A stretch of 59,094 bases of DNA, the filler included, from Globobulimina sp. (lineage: Eukaryota): the NCBI GenBank assembly GCA_003354225.1. It is 11 parts of 11 records of this genome, joined end to end, with 100 filler letters (N's around TTAATTAATTAA, not from the genome) between each part and the next. Parts side by side here need not be neighbours in the genome. Positions count along the whole stretch, not along the records: positions 1 to 5,299 come from PIVH01000640.1; 10 more parts are not named here. The stretch is one strand, 5' to 3'. Below, piece after piece: positions 369-57,941 of the stretch. The position numbers were made by a program, and so were the translations under genes. The notes below the pieces were generated by a model. That model searched no databases. It was given only the letters and a program-made list of their open reading frames with translations, and was not told the DNA's origin. Positions within the stretch are counted from its first letter, which is position 1. Every line of letters starts with the position of its first letter.

Positions 369-3065
369 TTATTGTTTAATGAATTTTGATATCTTTGAAA
401 CATCAATATTTTTGTAGGATTGAACTTGATGCAATTTGGATTGATTAAAATTTAAACTATTTAACAGAAACGAAGCAGTGGATTGCTCGCATTTTGTATC
501 TGTTAATGTTGAAATAATCAAATATAACTCATCAACATCCTGATAACATTTAGCTTTTATTTGTTGACTGCTCATTATATACTTTAACATTTCCATTTTA
601 TTGAAACGTAGAGCCATTGAAATGGAATTGTCATTAAACGGAGATCCATCCCTTGCAAATAGTCCATCCATAAATGCTTTATCACCGATCAAAGAACGAA
701 TTTTCTTTAAAGTGCTGACTTTACCCAATCTAACAATTTGTGACATTAATGTAAATAAATGATATTTATTGGAAGTTTTGTATTTTTCCGCTGTTGGCTT
801 ATAACGATATAACATCATTTCAGTCAAAACCTTTTTGCTAATATTTAAGTGATTTAACATGTAATCCATCAAATCTTTATTGGTATTCACTGTGAACAAA
901 TGAAACAACAAACGAAATAAATCATTTTTCTGTGTATATGTTTTCTTAATTTCTTCCATGTCAAATAAGATTCGAGCAATGGATACTTGCCCATATCTGA
1001 TGCAATATTCTGCGGGGCGCGTATCCGATTTATTTGCTTTCAAAACAAGTGCAATAAACGCATCATTTGTATGCAGTGATTTTAAAAATAAAAACGCTTT
1101 TTCATGACCAAATGTGCAGATTCTATGCAAAATATTGTTTTTACGGTTATCAGATTTCATTATCTCATCAATTGTCTTGTTATTAATAACCATCATATCA
1201 CATAACCCATTCACGTCTCCTCTGTTTCCTGCAATAAAGAGTTGCAAATCCTCATCGAGCAACATAGGGAGTACCTTTTGCACCGAATTTTGTATGGAAT
1301 CTTGTTCTCTTTTTATGGAATAGAGGTCGTGCGCTTTGTTTTTATATTCTTTCATTGTTCGAAGCAAGAACTGTACCTCTCCAATGATGCTGTGATGCTT
1401 TCCTTTAATTAATACATTGAGTTTAATATCGGCATAATCAGTCTTTTCAATATATTCAATAAATAAATTTTTATCTCGTACAATGGCAATGATATTGCCG
1501 GATTGGTAGTACTTGATTTTGTTAACAAATAATTCCAACGCAGCCAACAAAGATGTGATATCATCAAAAATCAATGCACATCGATTTATATCCACAACAC
1601 AAGCACTTGTTGGATATGTTTTATTGCCATAATCATTTATTGCCTTTTCTCGCGCTCTCTCGATCACCTTAACAGGGCCTTGCATGTATTCTATCTTTCC
1701 ATTGTCAGCACCGATCACTGCTTCATTTGTCACTCTGTTGACGGCAAACATATTTTGAACAGATTCCTGAAACTCGGTATCAACAATTTGGGCCAATAGT
1801 ATCAACTCTGATAAATATTGGTTATAATCGTAGAATTTGGGAGCATTAAAAGTAGCTCCCGATGACTCTGATAACTGATGATATGTATATTTAGTAACAA
1901 TGCCATTTTTAATCATATCTTGTCTGCAACTCACACGTTCGTTATTTTCATGAGCCAAACACTGCCATTTGGTCAATCTATCCCAAGCACTGTGATTTTC
2001 AGAGGCCAATTTTATTAAATCCTTCTCCAACTCTTTTAATTGACTCATTGCTGCAAAATCGACCAATTTTAGCAACTCAAAGTATAAATAATAAGAGTCG
2101 TCCGCATTCTTCTCCTCTTTCTCCTTCTCCTCTTTCTCCTCATTCTCATTGTTTGGACGCGATATTTTCTTAAACCAAATCTTAACGTATTAAACATATA
2201 TATATTAATAAAATATATAGCAATAGAGACCAGCTAGAAAGTTGGCCGACGTACAGTTGATGGGATGATCATTGTTTTCAACCAAGCCCAATCTCTCTTG
2301 CTTCTGTTTTGAACAATTTGGGAGCACACTGAAGATATAGTTTTCCATAAATCACTGTCTAATGGATTTTGTTGCTGTGATACCACATTCCAACACCAAC
2401 TGAGCATTTGATCTGAAAAAGATAGTTTTTTTGAAATTTTATTAATGATTAGTTCCATTGTTATTCCTTGATATAACTCTTTGGTTTGTTGTCCAATCAA
2501 TGACAATTCATTCGACGTGTTTTGATTGATACCATTTTGTCTATGCATTGTATCTGCATTAAATTTTATTTTATTCCCAATGTTAACATTCATTTTACTG
2601 AATATTAATAACTGTTTAACGTGGTGATATCCATAGCGTTCAGCAAGGGACAAAGCAGTATATCCTTCATTGTCTGTATGGTCTACGTCGGCATCATTAT
2701 TGAGACAAACTTGAACCAAATCGTATGCTCCATAACGAGCAGCAATTACTAATAATGTTTCACCTGTTATAAAATATTTGATTGGATGTTACGTTATTTT
2801 TGATTGGATGTTATAATTATTATTAATTACCTTTTTGGTTTATATCATGCACAGTCACTTTTTTGTTTTTAACCATTAATTTAATTTCACCAATATCACC
2901 TGTTCGAACTTTAGAATGTATATCATCCCAAAAATCAGAAGTATGTACAATATTGATTTTATTTGCTTTCTTTAATTCATCATAATCTTTTTGTAGTAAA
3001 TCTTTCTCTTTTTTTAATGTCTGTAACTGCAATCTCAAACTTTGCAGTTCAAATTCATTTTCCAT
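369..3065 (-). CDS. Ankyrin-repeat protein with a central RelA/SpoT-like (alarmone synthetase fold) nucleotidyltransferase domain, about 851 aa, 3 exons (3065-2831, 2763-2255, 2180-369)
   Basis: GT-AG introns 2830-2764 and 2254-2181 join three ORFs in frame. Splicing restores ankyrin repeats (GETLLVIAARYGAYDLVQVCL; GYTALSLAERYGYHHVKQLL). Synthetase-like motifs GPVKVIERAREK, DINRC, RDKNLF, YADIKLNV, GEVQF; more ankyrin-like repeats C-terminal. Confidence 0.8.
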
Positions 3066-3144
3066 CTTTGTTAGTTGAGAGCTAGACAGTTTTTTAGTGG
3101 AAAATTCAAGAATATTAAGTGGGTCACGATAAAAATTAAAAAAG

Positions 3145-4079
3145 TTACAATTTTGGTGTGGGAATAATCAAACATTTTGTTTCTGCTTCATTATCATCAT
3201 CCGTACTTTTCTCATTGTCATCAGTATCATTGTTATCGCGTATAAAATAAAATGATGCATAATATAATAAAGGTGTCGTATATAATGCAATAACAATGTC
3301 GACACTATAATGTTTTCTCGCCGCTATAATTAATATTATGAGAAGAATCTCTGATGGTATCATAATACAAAAAAAAACGACCCGAAACAATCTCTTTGTC
3401 ATTAATAGTTTGCCATAAACAAATATAGATAATATTAAAGTTAATGATAATGCTGTATGCGAACTAAATATTAAATCACCACATCCCTTTGTTGGATTAA
3501 TTCGAAATAAAACTTGAGATATATTTTTTGGTTCAGAATATGCATTTGATCCCGGTTGACAATGAGGTGCTGGCCCTGGCAAAGACGTTGCGAGGAATGT
3601 AAAACAGCGCGCTATGATACATAAAGCCATTACAAATAATGTTCTGATGACGACACAACTCTTTTTATTTTATTTTATTTTATTTATTGTATTAAACAAC
3701 AATGGACAATTCAACATACCATGTGAACAGGCGGGCGTTTATAAAGAAATGGGAGCAGAGATAAGCAAAAAGCAGCTATAAAAATGAATATGAATGCGAA
3801 TTCTGATAAAGGAAGTAGATCGTCAGACAGTTGAGGTATTAAATCATATCCGACATCTTTTAGTCGCAATCCTTGAACATGTCTGTAATATGCTAGATTT
3901 GTAGCAGGAGCGTGAAGGAATTGAATTGCAATACATGTTAAAAGCAGATACTTTCGTTTCCATAATAATTGTGCCTCAAATTTCCATCTTGAACAGGAAA
4001 ATAGTGATATCTTTAGTGTGTAAACTAATGCATGACAACATTTTGGATAGATTGACTGACGATGCTCATTTAGTAACAT
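3145..4079 (-). CDS. Inositol phosphorylceramide synthase / sphingomyelin synthase family (PAP2_C), 2 exons
   Basis: Intron 3719-3661 in frame; motifs TSLPGPAPHC, GCGDLIFSSH, AARKHYSVD resemble plant IPCS; several TM helices. Confidence 0.85.
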
Positions 4080-14949: not shown

Positions 14950-15359
14950 TTAGAAAGTTAACTATTATTCAACTCCCGATTTGGATCCATAAATTTGCAA
15001 CCAGTCAGCTCCCGAATTGTATTTATAATTTTTTAATTAATAATTCTCTTTTAATTTTTTTAGTTATTATCTGTTGTTTATACTATGCCATTTTTTATGT
15101 AATTGATGATAATAAAGACAGAGACCATTTTATTTTTACGGGTATGCAGTCGGTGAATTTTTCTCATTGCTGCCTGATAATAATAATAAAATACTCTACT
15201 TTCCTCAACTTTACTTTTTCAATTCCCCCCAAAAATTCCCTGTGTAAATTAATAAATCAATTGCAAATTTATTCATATTATGGCGAAAAAATTCTTATAG
15301 TAAAACTACTGCAAAAGTCCGCTAAAAACGTGTTATCACTTTCAAAACAAAATGGTTAA
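14946..15359 (+). CDS. Putative 137-aa hydrophobic ORF spanning the ORF1-ORF2 spacer
   Basis: Starts in an ATGA overlap with the ORF1 stop and overlaps the ORF2 start by 8 nt; TM-like LLIFLVIICCLYYAIFYVI. Confidence 0.4.
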   Translation: MIRKLTIIQLPIWIHKFATSQLPNCIYNFLINNSLLIFLVIICCLYYAIFYVIDDNKDRDHFIFTGMQSVNFSHCCLIIIIKYSTFLNFTFSIPPKNSLCKLINQLQIYSYYGEKILIVKLLQKSAKNVLSLSKQNG

Positions 15360-16076
15360 ATATAATATATTACAATATAACATAAATGGAATAATAAGTC
15401 CAACAAATATGTCACAAGAACAAAAATGCCACAGATTACACCAAATAATGCTCTCTAAACAAATTGACTTTGTACTACTCCAAGAATGGAGTGCAACACT
15501 GAGATATGCGTTAAGTCCGACTAATTCCAATTACATTGACAAAAATAACCAATCCCATTCATTAAAATTTCCAATCAAACTTTTCCCGAAATATAAAGTA
15601 CATTATACAGGCACGGAGACTGCCATATTGTACAGAGAAACATTACTAATCACTCCGATAAATCCTCCTCCAAATTATAACCGTAACTGCCGTACAAAAA
15701 ACTGCCATCTGACAAGTGTCATTCTCCATTGCGGCGACGAAGACATAGGAATTCATTCACTTTACAATTGCCCCCGCAATCCAAATGTCAACCAATTATT
15801 TGATTACCCCTTGAATGTTAATAAAAATATAATTGCGGGCGATTTCAATGTCCCAAATATAATTTGGGGCAGTAATACATCCACAAATGAGTCAAATGAA
15901 TTTATCGATGGATTAAACTTCTTAGGAATGCAAATATTAAATATTAATAATCCATCTTATACACATATCCATAAATCCTATAAAACGCGTTCTGCCATTG
16001 ATTTAACGCTCATTTCTGACAATCTCAAACATACAAACTGGTCAATCCTCCATTCGTTGTATGAACCAAACTGCTC
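15352..16076 (+). CDS. LINE ORF2, apurinic-like (EEP) endonuclease domain, 3'-partial
   Basis: ILQYNINGI, IDFVLLQE, SLYNCP, IIAGDFN, SYT, SAIDLTL. Confidence 0.92.
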
Positions 16077-16176
16077 NNNNNNNNNNNNNNNNNNNNNNNN
16101 NNNNNNNNNNNNNNNNNNNNTTAATTAATTAANNNNNNNNNNNNNNNNNNNNNNNNNNNNNNNNNNNNNNNNNNNN

Positions 16177-21335: not shown

Positions 21336-21560
21336 ATAAAATTAGCTGCGCTGTTATTGAACATATTGAGGTATTGCCGCGGTATAAGTTTTGGATGGAC
21401 CAATGTAGCGACGCATTTGGTGGCGGATTTGATATTTGCACGGTCGATGTATTAGTATCGNNNNNNNNNNNNNNNNNNNNNNNNNNNNNNNNNNNNNNNN
21501 NNNNTTAATTAATTAANNNNNNNNNNNNNNNNNNNNNNNNNNNNNNNNNNNNNNNNNNNN

Positions 21561-22142
21561 TTCTGGAAAAAACATTGGTGGTGTCTTCGCCGAGGTTTTA
21601 CCATCTGAATTTAATGTGAAAAAATAGTTGCGTTTTTGGTCAACAAGTTTGACATCAGCAAATAGTACTATGGTAAATTCTTTTTCTACCATTCCTTTCC
21701 ATTGCTTTCCTTGCACAGAAATTCTTTTTTCTGCTATACCTTCGTCTGCTTCAACTAATTCGGAGTGTGCTGTTATAATTATATCTTTAGGATACATCTT
21801 TAATAGGCTCATTAAGTTGCCTATCTCTTGATTGTACATACTCCATACATCAAAGCCTTTCTTGGTGTCTCTTGCAGTCTTTAGTACACTATCCACGTAT
21901 GCGGAAAAGCTTTCTAATATGACTGTCTTAATTTCTTTATTTTTGGCATACTCTATTAATTTAGAGTAAGTGTCTTGCCAATTTGCGGTTTTGTGATAAT
22001 GTTTGAATTCGTTTTTGAAAGGCAATGGTTTACTTTCAATATTAATAAAGCCCGTTGTTTCTTTGTCCATATTCCTAAAAGAATATGTTTTGCCTCGTCC
22101 TGGTGATCCGACGATAGCAACTTGGTAAGGGTCTCTATTCAT
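21561..22142 (-). CDS. Sak4-like (AAA_24) ssDNA-annealing ATPase, 3'-partial
   Basis: GSPGRGKT Walker A, FINIESKPLPF, IIITAH, VEKEFTIVLF, TSAKTPPMFF. Confidence 0.8.
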
Positions 22143-22155
22143 AAATTATTGTTTT

Positions 22156-22187
22156 AAAAAAGGTGACCAGTTTGAAGCTAGTCACCT
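22156..22187 (-). terminator. Rho-independent terminator-like hairpin
   Basis: Minus strand AGGTGACTAG-CTTCAAA-CTGGTCACCT followed by TTTTT. Confidence 0.75.
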
Positions 22188-22222
22188 ATATTGAGATATT
22201 ATAATCTTGCCATGATTAAGTC

Positions 22223-22696
22223 TTATCTGTTAAATAAACGATTTAATGCAGCTTTTTTAAAAATTTCGCCGATTTCTTCGTTCTTAACGATTACAGATCC
22301 TTGATCTGAATTTAATTTAATGAATCCACGGTGGAATGATACTTCACCACCACAATATAATTCATGTGTTGTATTTAGGTTCAATGCGTAATGTAAAAGT
22401 TTCTTTTTGATTTCAGTATAGTCAGCTATTATGTCTAATACTGGCTTGAATCCACTTTCTCGTACATAGTCAGCTCTTCTAATTCTGTCTACGTCATATT
22501 GAGGGGATGTACCAACTGATACCATTTCTCCTACTATTGCTTCTTCTACACCAATATTAACTTCAGGATATCGTGCTATTGATAAACCTAAATTGGTTGC
22601 CAAGTCTAATATTGGCTGTAAAAAGAATTGTAATGTACCTTCATCTTGAGCATTCTTAGTGTCAATGATGAAACTTGTTTTATTTTGTCTTGTCAT
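22223..22696 (-). CDS. Phage hypothetical protein (157 aa)
   Basis: Full ORF packed in the operon. Confidence 0.75.
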   Translation of the reverse strand: MTRQNKTSFIIDTKNAQDEGTLQFFLQPILDLATNLGLSIARYPEVNIGVEEAIVGEMVSVGTSPQYDVDRIRRADYVRESGFKPVLDIIADYTEIKKKLLHYALNLNTTHELYCGGEVSFHRGFIKLNSDQGSVIVKNEEIGEIFKKAALNRLFNR

Positions 22697-22720
22697 AAGC
22701 TTTGTAAAATTTAGTTAATG

Positions 22721-24745
22721 TTATTTTTTATGATCACCAACCTTGTAATCATCGATTCTGTTGTATTTTAGGTTATTCTTAAATACCAGTATTCCTGGTT
22801 CACCTTCTCTAACCTTAAGGAAGTGCATGTATATTAAATCTTTAACTGGCCACGCTTTCGGACCATACTCCTCAATTCCAATCAACTCCGGTCTATGTAA
22901 TACAATTACATAATCTGAAGCTTGGAATAGCGAGTCACCACCAAAAACATCCTTTCTCATTGGAAAATGCAATGATGTATTTGATAATCGTTCAGAGGAT
23001 TCAATTTCTCTATTCATTTGCGATAGTTGAATTATGGTATTTCTACCGTACTTTTTTACTTCCATGAACATCTTTTGTAAATCAGAAAGAATATTTCTTT
23101 CACTTTCTGTTCCTTTACCTTTCGTGAGCAATGTATGGTCTAAAATCGTTATAATCCATTTGCCTTTAGCTTCTGGCGTTCCTGCAAATGATAATATTGT
23201 GTTTTTAACTTCGTCTACTGTACCTGGCATATCCACATAATATATTGGATATTTACTAAGTTCGTAAGCGGTATTTGATATTTTTGAATAATCATCTTCT
23301 GATAAATGATTTGAGGAACTGTACAGTTCTGATGTTGTTTTTTCTAATCGATATGATAGTTTTCTACCTACTTGTCGACTACTTAACCATTTTATGTTAT
23401 CGTAGTTTTTTTAATTACTACTTCTGCAATTTATTTTGTTATATTTGCAGTTCAGACTATATCTTCAACTTTTTGAAATTCCATTTATGAAATTTTCCAT
23501 ATTCATTTTCTTCATATTGATATGGTATAAGTTGTTCCGCTTTCGTGGTAGAATTATTGTCTACTTGAGACTCACTACTAGTCGTTGAACCTTCAAAGGA
23601 ATTGCTTCCTAGGCTTGGCTGCTGATTGTCCTCTTCAGGAGTTTCCAGACAGTTAACGGAATTTGGAGACGTTAATAATTTATAATGCATACAAGGTATT
23701 TGTATTATATAATAATATATTAATGATTGAAATATGTGTCTACTTTTTGATAGTATTCTTGTTTTTTTAGATTTATTTATGCTGGTGTGTATGTTAAATT
23801 TTTTTAATAAATATTTTTGAAATATTTCTAAACTTTTATTATCGAAACAATCTGTAGATAAAAAATAATCTTTTCCATCATTAAAACCATCATCCATAAA
23901 ATGAACAGCTAATGATAAATTAGTATATTTTTCCATAATTTCTCCATTAATTCTTTTTATATTATTATAATAGAATAAATTTTTATAATAATCAAAGTAT
24001 CTATTGTTACTTAGATACATATGATTATAATCATAGTATTTACCTGTTTTTGCATTTGGGGTTTTTCTTGTATATTGTTTTATATTAGATTTTAAATTGG
24101 ATAATTTATCAGATTTCCATTTATTATATTCATATTGAGTTTTTCCATGACTACATTCTATTTTTGAATGTTTATCAGTTTTAGCTTTATACATACTACT
24201 ATCTCCTAATATTGTTCCTATTAATATTTCTTCATTTTCTTGTGTTATTTTAGGATAAATTTTGTCTTTAAAATAAAGTCTTTTGAAATTTTTAATAGTA
24301 GTTTTACTAAAGTTGAATTTTTCAGCTAATTCTTTAGTGGAATATCCGTTATAAATTAATTCTAATATTTCATCTTTGTGATCTTTTATTCTTTTCATAG
24401 TATTGTTATTTAACTATTATACGTGACTACCTTGGTAAGGTTTCACAATTCCATCTCCCAGTTAAATGATAACACTACAAAATCGGTTGCTTTATTAAGG
24501 TCGAATAAATCTGTTTCAAGACTATTTACAAAACTTGATTTACCTGAACCTGATACCCCTGCAATTGTGTAGATTGTATTTGGTTCTACACCACCCATGC
24601 ATCTTTTGTTAAATTTTGGCCATCTCGTACGTAGAGATCTAACTCTACCGTTTCTTCTATCATCAATGTACTTAACAATTTCTTTTGCTGCTTCACTGAT
24701 GTGTTTATATTCCAATGTGGAATAATTATTCGAGGTCTGTACCAT
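22721..24745 (-). CDS. dnaB: DnaB-like (SF4) replicative helicase, 319 aa after removing the group I intron (exons 24745-24453 and 23387-22721)
   Basis: Walker A GVSGSGKS; splicing restores FNWEM-LSSRQVGR; ILDH, LSQMNR, DVFGGDSLFQASD, KVREGE; exons total 960 nt. Confidence 0.9.
23388..24452 (-). ncRNA. Self-splicing group I intron (IA2-like), 1065 nt
   Basis: 5' exon ends in U and intron ends in G; P (AACUGUCUGGAAAC), Q (AAUCAGCAG), R (GUUCAACGACUA), S (AAGAUAUAGUC) elements; P3 UUCCG/CGGAA; IGS UUAACGUCUCC at 23675-23665. Confidence 0.93.
23457..24398 (-). CDS. Intron-encoded two-motif LAGLIDADG homing endonuclease with N-terminal HTH
   Basis: ILIGTILGDSSM and LAVHFMDDG motifs; ELIYNGYSTKELAEKFNFSKTTI HTH. 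Confidence 0.88.
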   Translation of the reverse strand: MKRIKDHKDEILELIYNGYSTKELAEKFNFSKTTIKNFKRLYFKDKIYPKITQENEEILIGTILGDSSMYKAKTDKHSKIECSHGKTQYEYNKWKSDKLSNLKSNIKQYTRKTPNAKTGKYYDYNHMYLSNNRYFDYYKNLFYYNNIKRINGEIMEKYTNLSLAVHFMDDGFNDGKDYFLSTDCFDNKSLEIFQKYLLKKFNIHTSINKSKKTRILSKSRHIFQSLIYYYIIQIPCMHYKLLTSPNSVNCLETPEEDNQQPSLGSNSFEGSTTSSESQVDNNSTTKAEQLIPYQYEENEYGKFHKWNFKKLKI

Positions 24746-25304
24746 ATTTATTTTCATCTTTAGGTGTATCGTTCATTCTTTCTTGGTATAATGTATAACT
24801 TTCTTCCATTAACCATTTAGGTAACCTTTTCATATATTTCAAGGTACCATCTTTTGTTCTTAATTTAACTTCAAATTTAAGGGCATCTAAGATAATTGTG
24901 TGTTTCTTAAGTTTATCGTTAGTGAGAGCACTATATTTCTTCTTACAACGCTTTAAATCGCTTCTAAGGTAGTCTGTAGTACCATCAGGTCTAATAACCC
25001 TGGTAGGGTATATTTCTAACAACTCATCGAAGAAGTTTCTATCTTTAACTTCATCAATTAATGCTTTAAATTTGTTCCTTATAATAATTTTATCATAATC
25101 CAGATCATTTATTGAATTTATACTTGCAATAAATCTGGACTCTGATAACGTTACTAATATTTTAATAAGATTTTCTTCTCCTATTTCTGATTTGATTTCA
25201 TCTATTTTATTAAATTCTCCGATAAGGAGTAAATATCCTATTAAGTATTGTAATAACGTCAAATTGTTACTTTCAATATTACTAGTATCTACTTCTATGA
25301 TCAT
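24726..25304 (-). CDS. Phage protein upstream of the helicase (possible initiator/loader)
   Basis: Overlaps the helicase start; FDELLEIYP...KYMKRLPKWL resembles phage replication-protein C-termini. Confidence 0.55.
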   Translation of the reverse strand: MIIEVDTSNIESNNLTLLQYLIGYLLLIGEFNKIDEIKSEIGEENLIKILVTLSESRFIASINSINDLDYDKIIIRNKFKALIDEVKDRNFFDELLEIYPTRVIRPDGTTDYLRSDLKRCKKKYSALTNDKLKKHTIILDALKFEVKLRTKDGTLKYMKRLPKWLMEESYTLYQERMNDTPKDENKYGTDLE

Positions 25305-25307
25305 GAT

Positions 25308-25655
25308 TTAGAATTTAATTATATTATTAATTCTTTTAATATTAGATTTAATTCTTTCCATTTCTAGTTCTAATATATCCTTCTTGTCATGAAATTTACT
25401 TTTAAGCTTATGGTGAATATTCTTTTTAGCTTTAATGTAAATTTGTATTTCATGAATATCATCTGAATCTAAATTAAAATTAAATTCATCAATGATGTAC
25501 TCAGATATTTCCTCTTTGTCAGTTTCAATATCTTGAGTAAAGAGGTTTCTATTATTATTAATCTGTTGTTTAGCAACGTCATAAAGTAAACATAAAAATG
25601 GGAAGTTTTCTGGATTTTCTATTGTTATTCCAATATGTTTATAATAGTTTGTCAT
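25308..25655 (-). CDS. Phage hypothetical protein
   Basis: ORF packed in the operon. Confidence 0.7.
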   Translation of the reverse strand: MTNYYKHIGITIENPENFPFLCLLYDVAKQQINNNRNLFTQDIETDKEEISEYIIDEFNFNLDSDDIHEIQIYIKAKKNIHHKLKSKFHDKKDILELEMERIKSNIKRINNIIKF

Positions 25656-25677
25656 AATCTGATAATATATTTAGTTA

Positions 25678-26139
25678 TTATTTCTTCATTACATTATTAA
25701 ATGCTTCCACATAGTGTGGTGGTAAAAATGTTTTTCTTTTATCATTATATGCTCTTATTGCATGTATATGATCTTTATCTAAATCTTTTATTAATTTAGT
25801 AATTGGTTCATCTAATCTATTTTCATCTTTATCAAATACTGATGTCCAGAATAGACATTCTTCTGGTGCTATTCCTTGTTCAATAAGAATAGTATAGCAT
25901 TCATCATAAAACCATATACCTGGTGTATTACCTATGATTTCTAATGCAATAAGTACTTGTGATATTCTAAGATCTGGATTTTCTTCCCAATATTTTTTAA
26001 TTTTAGGAATTCTTTCTGTAATAAGAGCAGAAAATGTTCTTGCATCATATTCAGAATTGAATAGATTCCATTGATTATGTAATAATTTAAACCAATTTAC
26101 TTTTTCTATAAAGTTTTGTATTCTATGCTTTGATCTCAT
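25678..26139 (-). CDS. Phage hypothetical protein
   Basis: ORF packed in the operon; WEENPDLRISQ motif. Confidence 0.7.
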   Translation of the reverse strand: MRSKHRIQNFIEKVNWFKLLHNQWNLFNSEYDARTFSALITERIPKIKKYWEENPDLRISQVLIALEIIGNTPGIWFYDECYTILIEQGIAPEECLFWTSVFDKDENRLDEPITKLIKDLDKDHIHAIRAYNDKRKTFLPPHYVEAFNNVMKK

Positions 26140-26169
26140 TTTTTGAAAGTTTTTTAATTTTTGTATAAT

Positions 26170-26844
26170 TTAAAATAATTTTAATTGATTGTCATATACT
26201 TGATTAATAATTTTATATGTTTCAGAAATATAATAATTATAATTAATATCATAATTATCTTTTTCTGTGTATTTGTTGAATGGGATTATGGTGTGCCCAC
26301 TTTCTATATTTACCAATCTCCCGTCCTCATGTCTTTTTAATAATGTACCACCTTTAGTGGATACATAATATCGAATATTTTTAGTTAATCCTCTAATGTT
26401 CTTTTCATTATTAATTACATTATGGTATTCTGCTTTCCAACCTTTAGTGGTTTTATATGATTTACAGAAGTCATAGATATCCTTATGATTTCGTATAGTT
26501 TCTTCAGGCTTGATTCCATCCTTATAATATTTTGATAATGCGATTTTAACAATTTTTTGTGAATGGTTTTTATGTATTTCTTTTTCAAGTTCAAAAGTTC
26601 CTTTACGTTTGATTTCTCCATTGGTAAATACACCGAGATAATTGTTTACATCTCTTAGTATTAACTTATCATATTCATCAAATTCTAATGTCAGATTTGT
26701 TTTATCTTCCCAGTCATAACATAATTGATAGTATTCTTCTAATCTATTTTTAGGTACTATGCATTCCATACCGTCAGTATTTACCATTAACATCTTGAAT
26801 CCCTCAAGTTGTAAGGTCTCTACTAGCATAGATAGTAGTAATTG
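26170..26844 (-). CDS. Family B DNA polymerase, C-terminal part (5'-partial)
   Basis: QLLLSML, VNTDG (motif C), RDVNNY, KRKGTF; this style is typical of crAss-like phage PolB. Confidence 0.85.
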   Translation of the reverse strand, partial: QLLLSMLVETLQLEGFKMLMVNTDGMECIVPKNRLEEYYQLCYDWEDKTNLTLEFDEYDKLILRDVNNYLGVFTNGEIKRKGTFELEKEIHKNHSQKIVKIALSKYYKDGIKPEETIRNHKDIYDFCKSYKTTKGWKAEYHNVINNEKNIRGLTKNIRYYVSTKGGTLLKRHEDGRLVNIESGHTIIPFNKYTEKDNYDINYNYYISETYKIINQVYDNQLKLF

Positions 26845-27056
26845 NNNNNNNNNNNNNNNNNNNNNNNNNNNNNNNNNNNNNNNNNNNNTTAATTAATTAA
26901 NNNNNNNNNNNNNNNNNNNNNNNNNNNNNNNNNNNNNNNNNNNNTCCTTCAAAATACATTCAATTGCTACAATAAAGAAACGATAGTTTTTGTGCAGAAA
27001 CTGTCGTTTTTACGAGTAAAGCTAGAATTTGTTACTAAAAAGTTTGAAGTGACCTC

Positions 27057-27701
27057 ATGGCAGAAGCTAAAGAAACGGATGCGTTAAAAAACGTTGTTGA
27101 AGTTCAAGCAATTCATCCAGAACAAGGAGCAGATTCGCCACCACAACTTCAACATAGTTTTAGTAAACGGGCGGGCCTATACATTGCCCAACATCAAGAA
27201 AAAGCGACAAAAGAGCAAGTGGCCTGTATTGCAACATTTGCATTGTTACTTGTCTCGGCGCCAGCAATTGCGGCTGTTATTATTGCATCGGGATATAACA
27301 GCGATACCTCAGCATGCAATGATAATACGCAATTGCAGCAATATGTAATTGATCCACAAATATATTTGTATGTTGCAGGTGGTGTACAATTAGGAATGTC
27401 TGTTATTTATTTTTTTACGCAAATAATTGCATTTGTATGTTTTAGTACAAATACATGGATGAACATAAAGTTTTGCGTTTCTCGTGGGATTTGTCGTTTT
27501 ATTTCATCATGTTATCCATTATGGCATTTACTGTGGGCATGTATCGGAATTTATGTGTATGCAATTGAAATGAGTCCACAATGTCAGAAAACGGATGTTG
27601 GTGTCATGATATTGGTGTGGTGTATTATTGAATTTGTTGGCGTTTGTTGTATTTCATGCGGTGTTGTTTGTTTTGCAATGGCTTTGCAAGCAGCCAAATG
27701 A
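27057..27701 (+). CDS. Four-TM membrane protein, hypothetical
   Basis: 214-aa ORF with four hydrophobic segments and a Cys-rich C-terminus. Confidence 0.75.
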   Translation: MAEAKETDALKNVVEVQAIHPEQGADSPPQLQHSFSKRAGLYIAQHQEKATKEQVACIATFALLLVSAPAIAAVIIASGYNSDTSACNDNTQLQQYVIDPQIYLYVAGGVQLGMSVIYFFTQIIAFVCFSTNTWMNIKFCVSRGICRFISSCYPLWHLLWACIGIYVYAIEMSPQCQKTDVGVMILVWCIIEFVGVCCISCGVVCFAMALQAAK

Positions 27702-34625: not shown

Positions 34626-35552
34626 TTACAGTAAGAATCCTGGCTGATTAACATCATACACATACACATGTTTATAATACAAATATGCCTGACACAAGCC
34701 TTCAAAAGTGGCCATACAAACAGCGCCACCAACTCCCATTCGAATAATCTTTGCTTGTAAGCCTCTGTAACATCCTTGTATGCCACCATCATATCTGTAG
34801 ATACTATACAAAGTACTAAGCGTGTATTTATATCTCCTTTCCTGTGACACACTTTCTTGCTGAAATCTGCTCTTAACCACATCGAAGGGCGCATTGAAAC
34901 AAGTCGCTATAACACCGCCACAAAAGCCTGCCACCAATGTTTGTCCCAAGCCATATATTTTATGTTTATCACTTACATCTGGCAAATAATTATGCTTTAT
35001 TTCATACATCAAACCAAAATATATTGTATTCCATACGCAGTTCCTCCAAAAAGTAGGTCCTAAGCCAATGAATAATGAACGGATTCCTTCTTCGGCAAAT
35101 ACAGTTTTGTAGCAATGCAATGTGTTTCTGTATTTTCCTAAATATATTTTACTTTGTAATCGAACTTTGAGCACTTGAAAGGGGCACACTGTGATAGCTT
35201 CAGTAAAACCTGACACACAGCCGGCTGCTGCACATATTTGCCAATTGGTTATATTGTCATTGATGTTTGACGCCAAATAACGACGTGAAAACTCATAGGT
35301 TGTATACATTACAGTTGTTTTGGGAATCATCCCAGCTAATTCTGGCAATAAGCCACGATAGAAACGCAGTATTCCACCTTCGTGGTATATATCTGTAAAT
35401 GATTTAAATATGGATGGTGGAAATGCATTATCCATGAGTTGATTTCGTGTCTTTATCATATCAAATGGTTGGACAGTGATCCCTTCCATGACACCGGCCA
35501 AACTGCCCGATATCCAAACAATTCCAGCTGGTGCTTGGCCGTCTGTTGACAT
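34626..35552 (-). CDS. Mitochondrial carrier (SLC25; 2-oxodicarboxylate-carrier-like)
   Basis: Three PxD/ExxKxRxQ-type signatures (PFDMIKTRNQ, PFQVLKVRLQ, PFDVVKSRFQ); WRNCVWNTIYFG. Confidence 0.9.
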   Translation of the reverse strand: MSTDGQAPAGIVWISGSLAGVMEGITVQPFDMIKTRNQLMDNAFPPSIFKSFTDIYHEGGILRFYRGLLPELAGMIPKTTVMYTTYEFSRRYLASNINDNITNWQICAAAGCVSGFTEAITVCPFQVLKVRLQSKIYLGKYRNTLHCYKTVFAEEGIRSLFIGLGPTFWRNCVWNTIYFGLMYEIKHNYLPDVSDKHKIYGLGQTLVAGFCGGVIATCFNAPFDVVKSRFQQESVSQERRYKYTLSTLYSIYRYDGGIQGCYRGLQAKIIRMGVGGAVCMATFEGLCQAYLYYKHVYVYDVNQPGFLL

Positions 35553-35634
35553 GGTTAGATTAAAGATAAATTAAACTCACTCACATTTTCATAATGGCTT
35601 ACATCACAAATCATTCACTTTATGACACTGTAAG

Positions 35635-37939: not shown

Positions 37940-40900
37940 CTATTCACCAAATGATTCCTTTACAATTTGTTTAAATTTACTTTGTGGATTATTCAACAAA
38001 TTATTTGGAGAATCGTATTCTAAAATATTACCATTATCCACAATTAAAATTTTATCATAATCCATTATTGTATTTATGCGATGTGCAATGGTTAATATTG
38101 TATTATTCTTAAATATTTTACGTATTGTTTCTTGCATAGCTTTATCTGTTTTTGTATCAACAGAACTCGTCGCTTCATCTAATAACAATATTTTTGAATT
38201 TCGAACAATTGCTCGCGCCAAACATAATAACTGTCTTTGTCCCAAACTAAAATTGTTTCCATTCTCTTCAACCATAACTTGTAATGGATCCATATCCATA
38301 GTAATACTTTCTTCATTATTCTCATTCTCTGCACTGGTACATATTTTATTTAATGCTGGCCACATATTGACAGACTTCAACGAATCTACTAATCTTTCAT
38401 CACTTGTTTGATTAAACGGATCTAAGTTATGTTTAATTGTTCCATTAAACAATACCGGATCTTGCGGTATCACTGATATCTTTTTCCTTAAATCATGTAA
38501 ACCAATTTCACCAATATCAACATTATCAATTTCAATTTTACCATCACTTAATTCCACCATTCTTAACAACGTAACAAATAACGAAGATTTCCCTGCACCG
38601 CTTCGACCAATGACCCCTACTTTTTCACCACCATTTATTTCAAAGGTCAAGCCTTTTATGACAAAATCCAAATTTTCTCTGTATTTCATCCAAACATTCT
38701 TAAAATGTATGCTCCCCTTTTCTGGCCATTCTCTATTCGTTCCATGCCCAATTATTTCTTTTTCAACAATGAATGCTTTTTCTTGCTTAATATGTTCACT
38801 TTTGTACTGATCAATTCGTTCAACAGCAACAATATCCTGCTCCAACTGTGCTTTTATTTGAATAAAGAAATTTAATAAATTACTTAGCATCATAACAGAA
38901 GTCAGAGCGACGCCCACTAATTCAGGCGGTGGTAATGTGATAGCACAGGAAAGTGCAGCTCCTCCCACCAAACACGACGAGATAAAATTTAATCGGACAC
39001 TCAACCATCGATTGGCAGACATTAACGGATAATAACAATGTAAATCGCGATTAATCAATTCCTTATTTTGCTTTTCAAACTGTTTCGTTCTATTTAATGT
39101 CTGAATAATGCTGATTCCATCCAAAGATTCGCCAAAATGTGAATAAATCGGCGAGTTCATAATTGAAGATAGCCGCCGTAATTCCCGCATTGAGGCAATA
39201 AAATATTTCTGTAAATAGTAATATAAGACCATCACTGGAATCACAAATATTATAAATAATGGGATTACAATGATTGACTGTATAAGTGATATGACTATGA
39301 GACCGCCCATGGTTATAAACTGAGTGACTGAGCCAGGTAGTTGCTCGTCGATATTATTCATATCTTTTGAAAACCTGTTTATGACTCGCCCTAATGGCGT
39401 CTCGTCAAAAAATTCTTGTTTTGCGCGCAGTAATGAATATAATAATCCCTGGTGTAACTTTTTAGACGCTCTCAATCTGCCAATAATAATAACTATAAAT
39501 GACAAACAAGAGACCAGCACTGCTGCCAATGTTATCGCACACCAAATGCCGATATAATACCAGTTATTATTTGTATCACTGGCGGACCATTTTGCCAACC
39601 AAAACACATTAATTGTCAGAAATGAGTACTCGAACACCTTAATAATGAGTAATGCTGAAACTAACAGTATTCCTCCCATAGCCTTAATATATTTCATATA
39701 TACGTCGATTCCCGTCGAGCCCACTCCGCGCTCCTCGGCTGTTGTAAGCTGGCCATTTCCTTCTTTTTCCCGGCTTTCTTCATCATCCATTGACACAGCG
39801 GCAGAGAAATAATCTGGTTCCACCAAAGACAAACTTTGTCTCAAACTCCCTCGCAAACTTCCTTTCAAACTTTGTCTCAAACTCCCCCGCAAACTTTGTC
39901 TCTCTGTTTTCGAATTCTTCTCAATTACATCAAATTGTGTTACATCAATATTTGCTGTTTGCAATTCCTTCAAAGCGCCTTGAATTTGAATCTGTGAATC
40001 TTTCATCACAATAATATTTTGTGCATATTTTAAAAATGTGATGGAATGTGTTGATAATATTATCGTTTTATTATTCTTGTTTAATAATTTGATAAAACAT
40101 TCATTAAAGATATGATTTGCGACTCCAACATCGAGGGCAGATAAGGGGTCATCGAAAATGTAAACATCCGCTTCACTGTAAACAGCGCGCGCCAATGAAA
40201 TGCGTTGTTTCTGCCCACCGCTGAGAGTAATGCCTTTCTCCCCAATTTCAGTGTCATCTCCGTTTGCCAATATCCTTAAATCTGGAGTTAATCCGCAAGC
40301 ATTCACCACTGTTTCATAAAAGATTTCATTATATTCTTTACCAAATAAAATATTTTCTTTAATGGTGGCGTTTTGGATCCAGGCAACCTGTGAACTATAA
40401 CCGATTGAGATATTATCATAATATTTGATGGAGCCTTCATCGCTTTTATTTAAGCAACCTATGATGGCAGATATCAGTGCAGATTTGCCTGACCCGGTTT
40501 GGCCAATTATCATTGTCATTGATCCAACTTTAAAATCACAATTAATATCTTTTAATGCAGTTTGTTTCAAAGCATCATCCCAATAAAATGTGGCTTCTCT
40601 TACAGACAATGCTTGTTTCCGATTATCTTTATCGTTCGCAACATATTCTATTTGCTCTCGTTTCACATCTGGAGAGCTAAGAAATAATCTAATTCTTTTG
40701 AAAGAAATCGAGGCATCGATGAGCGTTACAATTATTCTGTATAGTAAGTAAGTAAGTTTTTTTGAAATTAATGAATAAATTAAAGATATAAAATTTACTT
40801 AACGCTGGAAACATCATTAATGCGACACGTAATTGATTGAGAAACGCCATGGTAACAAACGCTTTTCGTGGTGTTAGAGTATGGCCCGATAAGACGTAAG

Positions 40901-43696: not shown

Positions 43697-46600
43697 TCAC
43701 AAATAATGATGACTTAAATTAAGACCAGTTATTGTATTCGGTTTATTATTCGCTTTATCTATATTTATAATATCCATATAATCGACAAGGTTTGAATACT
43801 GTTCCGCGACTTTATCCGCATATTTTATAACATGAGGTATTTTAACAGGACCTGCCCAGCCAAAATATATATTACATAGTGCATATGTGAATAATTCAAT
43901 ATCATTTTTCGAATTTTGTTCACTAAGTTTTAAATCATCATTGATAATAATCACTCGAACCGGATTCGCAACTTTATCTCTCGGCGCACCGCATGCAATC
44001 AGATAGAAATCCCACATTTCTGTTGAAACTATTTCAGAGTCCACAATGGTTCTTGGCTTGGCCCCAACTAATACATTCTGACGATGATCCCACTCAAAAA
44101 ATCTTGCATTTACCCGTTTTTGCACAATCATGAATTGTATCCGCGTCGATTGATGCGCAGCTCTTCTGATTGCAATTAATTCCAGCTTTGCCACAGCATT
44201 TAATTCACCCAACGACACACCATCTCGATACACAAATATTTGTTCAGGAATTACCTGTCGTTTGTTGACAAAATTCGCAATGGCCTTTTCAGTCAACATT
44301 TGTAACTGTTTTATACCGACCACTTCTTGACCCATTTGCTGATAATCAATCTGCGCCATTACACGACAGAAATCCGCATCGTAGGTCGACACAAATCCGA
44401 TGGTCGACACTCCTCTTTGTCGATTATGATTGACATCAATCCCAATAATCATGGTAGGAATATTTAAATCTATTTTACCATCCACTAAATAATTTAATTT
44501 CGGATTATTCTGATTGCCAACATTATTGTCATTCACTTCATTAATATTTGTCAGCATAACCTTCCATGGAATGACCCCCAATTTCACCATAAACTGACGA
44601 AAGGTCCCCAGCAAACTGTTATATTTTTTACTCCTTACTTTAGGGTCATTTTCTCGGCCTGGACAGATAGTGGCTGCCCGAATACATTGCGTAATTGTGC
44701 CAGTTTTCACATTGCAAAGTGCTTTCACTGTGTTATAAACATCAGTAACAACGCCATCATCCCTGGCAGACGGCAATATAAATAACAATCCTTCCAATTT
44801 ATACCGCAGTATTCCATCCTGTACATATTTAATAATATTCCGCAAATATAAGTCCATATTATCACCATTTGGCATTGGCGACTTGATCTCAATTGGAAAT
44901 GGATATGGATCCAAACAAAGATTCATATCATTATCATTTACATTTGAAAACCAATTATGTGAGAATTCACTAAATGCCCGACACAACTCTTCATGACACA
45001 GTTCATAACTTTGTTCCCTGCAATCAAGATAAGCCACGCCCCACTTCACAATATGTGTGCGGTTATTACTGCCGTGAGCACAGGCACTGAAGGGGCGGAC
45101 ATCTTTGATACTCCGCAGTAACTGATGGTCGTTGATAATGGCTAAGCCGTTCTCTCGGATGGAATTATATAAAATCGTAGTTGGCACAATGCGATGAGCT
45201 GTGACGTTCAATAAATTAGCGCCATATTCCAAAGTGCGAGTATGTCCCACCACGTTGGGATCATTTAATACCTGCCGCTCACGAGACTGGTATTGATTCA
45301 ATTGATTCAATTTCTTGATGACTTTGTCGACATTTTCCAACCTTTTCTGCAAAGGAATCGACGTATTCCTGGCAATAATACCGGTTATTTTTTTATTTCT
45401 GCGCAACTTGGCGGGATAACCAGTTAAATAGCACAGCTCTGGCGGATAATAATCAGTACGCAGCTTACCGCGATACTTACTTTCAACTGCTAACAAACCA
45501 TGAAAGGGTTGAACTAAGTCTTCTTTATATATATTTTTATAATAATCTCGAAAGGTGACCCAATTGCCTTTACATTTAAACTTTGAGTCTAGGCTTTTGT
45601 TGAAATTGATTGCAGATATTTTACGAATGCATCTCCGCGCATACAATGTGATAAAATATCGACCAATCAGTTCTTTCCTGCATTCGGTTTCGTACATACT
45701 CGATTTGTGGTCATCATGTTCGAATTGATATTCATGCGCCGCGTCATAATGCCCATTCATGATATCCATGATTTTTCGTTTCTCTTTTAATCGTAATTTA
45801 TTTCGAAAATAGATGATGGTTTGCCGTTCTTTTGTATATTCCATTGTACTAAAGAAGCCGTGCATGGCTTCTAAATATGGATATTCCCGAATATTTAATG
45901 AATGTATTAGTTCCGGGTCAATATAATGACTTTTACCAAAGGTAACATAGCCGACCTTTCTCATTTTATTCCTGTGCATAACATGTACAATTTGTGATAA
46001 ATATTCATGCGAGAAAGCCCGAATTGCATCCATTGAATCAAAATCTAACTCTGCGTTGTATGAGATGCGCACAGTGCCATTACCATACGTCATCGCATTT
46101 ATTTTGTAGCCGAATTGCTGTGTTTGTAATACTTTCCTATCGCAGTAAATTACGGTGTTATCAAAATCAAATTTGCCATAGATTTGGCGGATTTGTTGGA
46201 AGAGTCTGATCAGAGTATTATTAATCAGATATGGTCTGAGAATAATTAAACATTTAAAATAACAAACTAAACTCTCTCATAATGATTTCGTATCGTCTCG
46301 CTCTGTTATCCTGAGGGATATCGGCATCCTTTGGGTCATCGCTGTGTGCATGAAACTGTATCACTTGTTATTAATAATAATGAAATGAAACAGTAATACA
46401 ATACTTAACTCGGACATTATAGCGATGTAAAATTCCGTGAATTACTGGTCTTGCTTGAATGGCGTTGATAGTTAATGTTATTTGTCTGGCGTGGGATGGA
46501 GGGAATTCATGTGCAAAATGAGGGCGTTGTGCAATATTATACTGCTGTCGTGGTGGTGCCACAGTACTTAAAGGTACCATTGATCTGCAATCATTAGAAT

Positions 46601-56796: not shown

Positions 56797-57941
56797 TTAG
56801 CTAATTATTTGGAAAAAAAATTGTGATTCTAAATTGCCATCTTCCTGTAAATCTGTACAATGCACAGCATTTTGTACTCTATCAGTACCATATTTTGCTC
56901 TTAATGTATGTGGGCGAATACATTTTGCAATTGTTGGATCTGAGGGGCCTACAAATTCTCGAAACTCTTTGAATCCACTATTTGTATTAATTTCATCCTT
57001 TTCTTCATCATTCACATTCTCTTTGTTCATTGAATTACATTCAATTTGTAATGCAATCGCTGATCCAGACAATAATTGTTCGACCAAAAACTTATATTCT
57101 TTAACAACTCCATTATAAATTTCATAAAAATCTTTAGCTTCGGAAAGTGTTAATTTTTTTGCTGTAATTGCTGTAATATTAAAACCTTCATTTAATATGT
57201 CATTAATAATTGAGGCTGATGCAGATATTGCATGTGGTTTAATTAAACATAGCGATGAGACTTGCAATTGATTTGTTGATAACATCGCAGACGCTGGACA
57301 TTGTTTAATTTGTTCAACTAATACTTTGTCTTTATTTGCATCATACATAATACCGTTAAAATGCGCATTATTATCTTTTTTACATTCGTTAAATGCCGAT
57401 GCAATGTCTTTACTTCCTACAAATTCACATATTATCAATATTTCATTGGTTGATTTGGTTCTAAACACAGGAAATGACAATTAATTAAAATAAAATCAGA
57501 AATACATAACTTTTCAATTTGTAGAAATTGCTGAATTTGTTGATTTGGTGTGACAGATTTAATGGTTTTAAAATGAAATGATGCAGCTTTGTATTTATTG
57601 ATTTCAGTTAAAAAATGTGTGAATGATTTAAAATTGACAAATAATATATTATATGATTTTGATATTAATTCAAATTTATTTTTTGTGAATAAATCAGCAT
57701 AAGCAATAATGTTTAATCGTCGTGAAAAAACTACGATTGTTTTTCCGACATATAAATCATTTGGAAATGTAATATCTTTATTTGCGACGACACGTTTTAG
57801 AAATAAGCGATTTTTTGCCACATCATACATTGATAAAGAACCATCTTTTGGCCAATAAGTTAAGTTGTATTTCCGTGATAAGTCTGCTTTGGCATCATGC
57901 CATTCTACAACAAATGTATATGTATCTTCTTCGTTACTCAT
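56797..57941 (-). CDS. NME7: Nucleoside diphosphate kinase 7-like (DM10 + NDPK), 2 exons
   Basis: DM10 FVVEWHD..RKYNLTYWPKDGSLSMYD..RLFLKR; CLIKPHA, FREFVGPSDP, TLRAKYG, NAVHCTD; intron 57510-57461. Confidence 0.88.

Follow-up and report, generated by a model that had tools for sequence, protein, structure and literature searches.

A spliced foraminiferal gene with a predicted, strongly diverged RelA/SpoT-type synthetase core between ankyrin-type arrays

RelA/SpoT homologue (RSH) enzymes are stress and toxin enzymes of bacteria, and in eukaryotes they are known from plastid enzymes, a few sporadic small alarmone synthetases and effector domains of fungal NOD-like receptors (NLRs; NOD, nucleotide-binding oligomerization domain). 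Does a minus-strand gene at 3065..369 of a 59,094-nucleotide stretch of the Globobulimina sp. assembly GCA_003354225.1 (the whole stretch, filler included, hereafter the window) encode a further enzyme of this kind? An earlier inspection made without database searches, referred to here as the sequence-only reading, had proposed an RSH-type alarmone synthetase set between ankyrin repeats. Our analysis favours a spliced foraminiferal gene whose product has a divergent small-alarmone-synthetase homologue as its core, probably transferring pyrophosphate from ATP, and ankyrin repeats that would bind partner proteins; we consider this interpretation reasonably likely.

The 261 residues conserved across the family were modelled with AlphaFold2 from 73 aligned sequences and no templates, giving a mean predicted local distance difference test score (pLDDT) of 90.5 and a predicted template modelling score (pTM) of 0.83. 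In core numbering, the first half of the model consists of a long helix, a hairpin ending at a G-P-x-K loop, a helix bearing R119 and K123, and a strand after D141, and the second half of a helix, a strand ending in R-D-K-N, the K197/N199 strand, the E212/Q214 strand and a long helix. D141 lies at the start of strand E143-149 and E212/Q214 within strand E209-217. The nearest solved neighbours of this topology, a five-stranded mixed sheet with flanking helices, are RSH synthetases. A Foldseek search of the PDB returned 57 matches at an expect value (E) of 1e-3 or lower, the best at 5.3e-7, and 23 of the best 25 of these are titled alarmone synthetase, Rel, RelA, RelSeq, CapRel, Tas1 or GTP pyrophosphokinase; the remaining two are smu.1046c, which we take to be RelQ-like. 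Among the viral models of BFVD there were 12 matches at the same threshold, of which 5 are named RelA/SpoT, YjbM or Tas1, including the top match, named RelA/SpoT (E 5.6e-8). The closest structural matches were the small alarmone synthetases RelP, SAS1 and SAS2, with identities of 12-19% in the structural alignments; the stretch aligned to RelP by VIA-align comprises core residues 55-240 (window 1293-1850). Two independent structure searches put RSH enzymes first with a gap to the rest, and in Z score RSH enzymes are clearly above other transferases. Structure prediction thus bears out the fold proposed by the sequence-only reading, and the core is predicted to adopt the RSH synthetase fold.

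The same proposal had listed five motifs in a fixed order, namely GPVKVIERAREK, DINRC, RDKNLF, YADIKLNV and GEVQF. They occur in that order in the translation of exon 3, lie on invariant RSH columns and are nearly invariant in an alignment of 162 relatives whose identity to the query core ranges from 27 to 68% (median 49%). GPVKVIERAREK provides G112 (154 of 162 sequences), P113 in place of the RSH Arg (156), K115 (160), R119 in place of the RSH Ser (158) and K123 (159). In the remaining motifs, the residues kept are D141 (162/162) and R144 (160/162); R179 (158/162), K181 (160/162) and N182 (162/162); Y193 (159/162), D195 (161/162) and K197 (161/162); and E212 (160/162) and Q214 (158/162). K115, K123, D141, Y193, E212 and Q214 are jointly present in 152 of the 162 relatives, down to 27% identity. 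The family has retained the metal- and ATP-binding set (Gly and Lys of the loop, Lys of the helix, the Asp that is invariant in RSH enzymes, Tyr and Glu-x-Gln), and the catalytic Asp and Glu on which the proposal hinged (D445 and E516 of the whole protein) are conserved among homologues. To judge from the sequence, the second strand carries one acidic residue, which is the RSH arrangement and not the DxD of classical nucleotidyltransferases. A further conserved R-Q-D (core residues 30-32, window 1917-1925, minus strand) was noted in 138-139 of the 142 relatives that cover the site. It is situated upstream of the RSH-like fold in a loop of lower model confidence (block pLDDT 65) and has no counterpart in bacterial RSH enzymes; the loop might reach the active site, for example in replacement of the lost loop Arg.

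At the level of sequence, the relationship was examined with a template of 109 diverse RSH sequences, including 80 long RSH enzymes from many bacteria and 28 sequences from sampled genomes, small alarmone synthetases among them. In the hhalign alignment of the 162-sequence core with this template, the paired residues, in E. coli RelA numbering, are G112 with G251, K115 with K254, K123 with K262, D141 with D275, F184 with F307, Y187 with Y310, Y193 with Y319, E212 with E335, Q214 with Q337, M220 with M343 and Y231 with Y357. All eleven RSH columns have the same residue as the one that is invariant in the family, and it is kept by 89-109 of the 109 RSH sequences. The score against the real template was 19.6, compared with 10.6 for the reversed one. 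A custom hidden Markov model (HMM) of the 109 RSH and small alarmone synthetase sequences, run with all filters off against 224 family members, matched member P0322 best (E 3.2e-5, 17.5 bits, HMM 36-184 on core 90-261) and P0284 second (E 1.3e-3). Of its 133 domain matches, 96 fell into one register (offset 45-80), and as a positive control 120 of 120 RelA fragments were recovered. The P0322 alignment places G-P-I-K on g-R-p-K, D-I-A-R-C on D-i-a-a-v-R, R-K-K-N on e-f-k-D, Y-C-D-V-K on Y-r-S-l-H, and E-I-Q on E-i-Q. The hhalign result by itself is suggestive; taken with the fold, we regard the residue pairs and the register of the custom HMM as good evidence of a probably true but very remote homology to RSH synthetases. 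A first family HMM scored E. coli RelA at -2 bits, and in scans of E. coli K-12 and four bacterial genomes with the family profile, the only matches came through the profile's ankyrin columns and none lay at relA or spoT.

The gene itself is real and spliced, and belongs to the nuclear genome of a foraminifer-like protist. Three stop-to-stop open reading frames (ORFs) on the minus strand (2823..3167, 2234..2788 and 369..2189) had been read as one 851-residue protein joined over two GT-AG introns, and this gene model (Table 1) was upheld by the three approaches taken. When all GT..AG pairs around both inter-ORF gaps were enumerated, four in-frame joins without stops were obtained, and among these the 851-residue model is the one that fits the homologues. 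The borders found by tblastn with six foraminiferal homologues lie at 2180/2177 and 2767-2758/2252, and the translation across the junction of exons 1 and 2 restores an ankyrin repeat. Transcript-like contigs of three sequencing runs (X6 and X7, which share a sample, and X8, which belongs to a different study), each 95-99% alike to the window, omit exactly 2181-2254; a contig of X7 omits the 67-nt intron 1 as well. Exon 1 is covered by such contigs at 2829-3092 (X7) and 2839-3078 (X6), while parts of the gene without contig cover from these runs (e.g. 300-416) are uninformative. A DNA-like run, X1, 99% or more alike to the window, has a single contig over 300-2791 that retains both introns. 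Contamination by bacterial or viral DNA was dismissed because the gene has introns and spliced contigs, and a second gene copy in the window was dismissed as well, the six homologues matching 375-3062 only by tblastn. The transcript-like contigs differ from the window at 1-5% of positions, and most of these changes are transitions, which fits a different strain or allele. Contigs of X1 break near 2791/2794, and one of them diverges at 3067, just upstream of the start codon, with a loose end of 255 letters, which could reflect allelic variation or a structural change in the 5' flank.

The protein starts with an N-terminus that resembles a coiled coil, continues with about three ankyrin repeats, a conserved linker of helices and the RSH-fold core of about 190 residues, and ends in a C-terminal solenoid of about 290 residues. 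Pfam recognizes the N-terminal array in exon 2 (Ank, E 4.5e-9; Ank_2, E 1.9e-8), and the C-terminal Ank_2 match (E 2.4e-4) has 22 bits, under the cut-off of 27.3. An AlphaFold2 model of the 606-residue exon-3 ORF (mean pLDDT 91.2, pTM 0.66) has the same core followed by some 290 residues of short paired helices, a helix-pair pattern with block pLDDT mostly above 90. Foldseek gave 20 matches to this model at E <= 1e-3, which include both ankyrin-repeat proteins and small alarmone synthetases; those to the solenoid are DARPins, ankyrin repeat clusters (ARCs) of tankyrase, ankyrin-1, gankyrin and FEM1B, at E 8e-5 to 1e-3. These two kinds of match indicate that the core sits between two ankyrin-type arrays, in agreement with what had been proposed, by Pfam for the N-terminal side and by the model and Foldseek for the C-terminal side. 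Identity to homologues is 0.18-0.36 in the C-terminal part and about 0.6 in the core. HD (PF13328, PF01966), TGS (PF02824) and ACT domains gave no Pfam match at E <= 1, so that their reported absence stands. The N-terminus, acidic and heptad-like, looks like a coiled coil rather than a transit peptide, and from this feature alone the protein would be placed in the cytosol.

Table 1. Coordinates in the window of the exons, introns, core motifs and C-terminal solenoid of the RSH-like gene
Feature	Position	Strand	Description
Exon 1	2831..3065	-	ATG at 3065; coiled-coil-like N-terminus and start of the first ankyrin repeat; found by tblastn with 2 of 6 homologues
Intron 1	2764..2830	-	67 nt, GTAATT..AACAG; absent from one X7 contig, retained in X1
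Exon 2	2255..2763	-	Ankyrin repeats (Pfam match at about 2579-2763), then conserved linker; found by tblastn with 6 of 6 homologues
Intron 2	2181..2254	-	74 nt, GTACGT..TTAAG; absent from X6, X7 and X8 contigs, retained in X1
Exon 3	369..2180	-	Stop codon 369-371; pre-core helices, RSH-like core, C-terminal solenoid; found by tblastn with 6 of 6 homologues
Conserved family core	1230..2012	-	261 residues, protein residues 305-565
GPVKVIERAREK	1644..1679	-	Corresponds to the ATP-phosphate loop and helix, G-R-x-K...S...K, of RSH enzymes (hhalign map, HMM alignment)
DINRC	1578..1592	-	D141, aligned with the Asp that is invariant in RSH enzymes (D275 of E. coli RelA; hhalign, HMM alignment)
RDKNLF	1461..1478	-	R179-x-K181-N182 at the position of the RSH RXKD/EXDD motif (HMM alignment of P0322)
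YADIKLNV	1413..1436	-	Y193, aligned with the invariant RSH Tyr of Y-x-S-x-H; D195 for Ser, K197 for His (hhalign, HMM alignment)
GEVQF	1368..1382	-	E212 and Q214, aligned with the RSH E-x-Q, E. coli RelA E335 and Q337 (hhalign, HMM alignment)
C-terminal ankyrin-like solenoid	375..1253	-	ORF residues 313-605; all-helical (AlphaFold2 and Foldseek)

The gene belongs to a very large, unnamed and unannotated family of strongly diverged proteins with a RelA/SpoT-type fold, all named members of which are foraminiferal. In a word-indexed search 89 relatives were recovered, and the closest has 45% identity over exon 3. When 1.84 billion cluster representatives were scanned with the core profile in HMMER, 1191 matched at E <= 1e-3, 672 at E <= 1e-10 and 230 at E <= 1e-30, counts that refer to clusters at 50% identity. 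Records of 30 members were consulted; 15 give an organism name, in every case that of a foraminifer (Nonionella stella, Bolivina argentea or Reticulomyxa filosa); two further members are labelled Ammonia sp., and the remaining members come from marine or other environmental catalogues. The Reticulomyxa filosa member is annotated as "hypothetical protein RFI_22575". Most relatives have ankyrin repeats; in some, RCC1, protein kinase, WW or CH domains or a WD40 head of coronin type are present in addition. In Nonionella stella, these fusions comprise the coronin-type WD40 head (P0236), RCC1 (P0251, P0253 and P0351), protein kinase (P0346) and WW (P0350); CH was found in one of 25 divergent members. 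Pattern-seeded scans of prokaryotic genome contigs (80 pattern matches) and viral contigs (13 pattern matches) confirmed no relatives, which is weak evidence of absence outside eukaryotes because both scans hinge on two peptide patterns.

How the protein would work can be outlined from what is known of RSH enzymes. On the interpretation favoured here, the core would bind ATP-Mg and pass the beta,gamma-pyrophosphate to the 3'-OH of an acceptor. If the residue roles of RSH enzymes apply, the metal would be held, and the 3'-OH of the acceptor activated, by D141 and E212, the ATP phosphates would be held by K115, R119 and K123, and Y193 would stack on the acceptor base. Four substrate-side residues differ from RSH enzymes family-wide, so that an acceptor other than GDP or GTP is conceivable. 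The two ankyrin arrays would serve to bind partner proteins, which would position the enzyme or gate it, and self-association may be mediated by the N-terminal coiled coil. Ligand gating, ankyrin arrays as sensors, a nucleotide messenger or toxin as product, and a role in immunity or stress, all suggested by the sequence-only reading, are plausible by analogy only.

Several observations weigh against this interpretation. The TM-scores of the Foldseek matches in the PDB are modest, at 0.31-0.47 by query and at most 0.58 by target. The RelA_SpoT model PF04607, the search that had been recommended for checking the proposal, came out negative: there was no match at E <= 1 in the three exon products, none at E <= 0.01 in 34 diverse homologues, none among the best 25 of 46 families matched at E <= 10 by 25 divergent members, and none in the precomputed Pfam annotation of 89 and of 120 listed homologues. 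As PF04607 stands (gathering score 27 bits), the core is thus not a member. NCBIfam and PADLOC gave no match to the core, and phmmer and hmmsearch of the PDB, by sequence or by profile, no RSH match, one of the profile searches having retained ankyrin columns and returned ankyrin proteins only. Against single RelA sequences or shallow RelA alignments the hhalign probability was 0.1-0.3%, and against the 109-sequence template, over 183 columns, it was 1.5% with a P value of 0.034, which is not significant; the real template's score was equalled or exceeded by 14 of 267 block-shuffled ones. Among the motif residues, Pro replaces the loop Arg of G-R-x-K (108 of 109 RSH sequences) in 156 of 162 relatives, and Arg replaces the helix Ser (107 of 109) in 158. 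Asp and Lys stand for the Ser and His of Y-x-S-x-H, and Leu for the Arg that follows E-x-Q. Given these replacements, the chemistry or the acceptor may differ from those of known RSH enzymes. As for splicing, X6-X8 were typed as "RNA?" by guess, and none of the listed runs carrying the gene is recorded as RNA.

The negative searches in Pfam, NCBIfam and the PDB and the hhalign P value of just 0.034 could be taken to mean that the domain is unrelated to RSH enzymes and that the likeness is convergence or an artefact of structure prediction. This we regard as very improbable, as two independent structure searches rank RSH enzymes first with a gap, the model was obtained without templates at a pLDDT of 90.5, eleven residues that are invariant in the family are the same as those of the invariant RSH columns to which they align, and the RSH HMM matches in one register (best E 3.2e-5, n = 224). 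A fold of RSH type that has lost RSH chemistry, either as a pseudoenzyme or nucleotide-binding scaffold or with another transfer reaction such as nucleotidylation of protein or RNA, would accommodate the replaced residues and is quite unlikely in our judgement. The Asp (162/162), the Glu (160/162) and both Lys are constrained down to 27% identity, and such strong constraint on the metal-binding pair and the two Lys argues against a dead enzyme; the single acidic residue on the second strand follows RSH enzymes rather than the DxD pattern, and in structural Z score RSH enzymes stand well above other transferases.

Two further readings keep pyrophosphate transfer and differ in its purpose. The core may be a cytosolic synthetase of a second messenger, (p)ppGpp, (p)ppApp or a related nucleotide, with the attached modules coupling synthesis to the cytoskeleton or membrane traffic, and this is a possibility that we consider less likely than not. 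Its closest structures are the small alarmone synthetases RelP, SAS1 and SAS2, which make (p)ppGpp; R-x-K-N stands at the position of the RXKD motif of bifunctional Rel enzymes (PMC2666561); the stacking Tyr is conserved; in relatives, fusions with RCC1, kinase, CH and coronin-type modules occur; and divergent small alarmone synthetases that are not targeted to plastids are on record in Dictyostelium, fungi and diatoms (PMC3153485). However, four substrate-side residues that are invariant in RSH enzymes are replaced family-wide, hundreds of paralogues would be unusual for a signalling enzyme, and a literature search found nothing joining foraminifera with ppGpp. Alternatively, the protein may be an effector of conflict or immunity resembling CapRel, that is, a toxic pyrophosphokinase that either modifies tRNA 3' ends or uses up ATP in making (p)ppApp; the ankyrin array would autoinhibit it until a foreign protein (viral, symbiont or prey) released it, with a stop of translation or growth as the outcome. 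In CapRel, a C-terminal domain of the same chain both blocks the ATP site and senses the trigger (PMC9712102). That domain is a small pseudo-zinc-finger antitoxin and the CapRel system is bacterial or prophage-borne, whereas the foraminiferal gene, set against CapRel, FaRel and Tas1, has introns and ankyrin arrays on both sides; we think the effector reading unlikely. A bacterial toxin-antitoxin module was dismissed as the identity of the locus; PADLOC gave no match, and the gene is eukaryotic and monocistronic.

Comparison with described systems sets the preferred reading, a divergent small-alarmone-synthetase homologue with ankyrin arrays, apart from each of them. RelP and RelQ (SAS1 and SAS2) of Firmicutes are bacterial single-domain proteins of about 200-250 residues that match PF04607, whereas the foraminiferal protein is eukaryotic, has several domains in 851 residues, does not match PF04607 and carries in its core Pro for the loop Arg and Asp and Lys for the Ser and His of Y-x-S-x-H. 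Long RSH enzymes (Rel, RelA, SpoT and plant RSH1-3) have HD at the N-terminal and TGS and ACT at the C-terminal side, where the foraminiferal flanks are of ankyrin type instead, and because HD, TGS and ACT are absent, the protein is not a long RSH. Among eukaryotes, 'divRel' small alarmone synthetases of Dictyostelium, Aspergillus, Gibberella and diatoms are synthetase-only proteins outside plant RSH1-4 and CRSH (PMC3153485). The foraminiferal family is likewise eukaryotic, predicted to be synthetase-only, and outside these plant groups. The divRel proteins are, however, detected by RSH HMMs, sporadic and probably of bacterial origin, whereas the foraminiferal family evades RSH HMMs at database scale and comprises more than 1000 clusters at 50% identity.

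A second eukaryotic precedent is offered by fungal NLRs with an N-terminal RelA_SpoT effector, which are described as non-plastid proteins with repeat arrays that include ankyrin (PMC4986451). As in these effectors, the foraminiferal RSH-type domain is eukaryotic, not of plastids and joined to ankyrin repeats. Fungal RelA_SpoT domains match PF04607 and lie N-terminal to a NACHT or NB-ARC nucleoside triphosphatase, whereas the foraminiferal core lies between two ankyrin arrays, does not match PF04607 and has no NOD module. No Pfam match to NACHT or NB-ARC was found in the query protein or in 34 homologues, and the protein is not an NLR of fungal type because the NOD module is absent. As far as the available parts of these sources extend, none of the known eukaryotic precedents, that is plastid RSH enzymes, divRel proteins and fungal NLR effectors, is rhizarian, flanked by ankyrin repeats or comparably expanded. 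A literature search found nothing that joins foraminifera or Rhizaria with alarmone enzymes, and nothing on eukaryotic small alarmone synthetases or RelA/SpoT nucleotidyltransferases with ankyrin repeats.

The remainder of the window contains genes of various kinds. A PAP2_C protein is encoded at 3148-3669 on the minus strand, directly upstream of the RSH-like gene. A block of low GC content (0.25-0.31) at 21516-27700, mostly on the minus strand and placed between a Ras GTPase gene and a synapsin-like gene, comprises AAA_24 (21516-22145), a DnaB_C helicase (22724-23410) and LAGLIDADG_2 with a GerE helix-turn-helix (23460-24413), followed by several ORFs without a family; it looks like a replication module of virus or phage type within a eukaryotic contig. 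An ORF on the plus strand (15304-16125) carries Exo_endo_phos_2 and Exo_endo_phos, as in retroelements of the long interspersed nuclear element type. Eukaryotic genes on the minus strand encode a mitochondrial carrier (34629-35570), an ABC transporter (37943-40798), a PAZ/Piwi Argonaute (43700-46276), a cytochrome P450 (54799-55947) and a nucleoside diphosphate kinase (56800-57480). The window contained no tRNA and no Rfam match.

The locus leads to a family of more than 1000 clusters in a major protist lineage that has retained the catalytic residues of RSH enzymes and evaded the standard models, and because it evades them, HMM-based RSH censuses have probably missed it. One such census applied SYNTH HMMs at E 1e-4 to 24,072 genomes, a cut-off that this family would fail (10.1101/575399). 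Tentatively, and as a speculation rather than an expectation, a cytosolic pyrophosphokinase derived from RelA/SpoT, its acceptor pocket remodelled, may have been expanded by foraminifera to a set of hundreds to thousands of paralogues. These would serve either as ankyrin-gated effectors of immunity or conflict that lack a NOD module, equivalent in eukaryotes to abortive defence of the CapRel type, or as makers of a nucleotide messenger new to the eukaryotic cytosol. The members of the family are candidates for alarmone-type or tRNA-pyrophosphorylating chemistry in that compartment, and their series of fusions with ankyrin, RCC1, kinase, WW, CH and coronin-type modules may hint at what the enzyme couples to.

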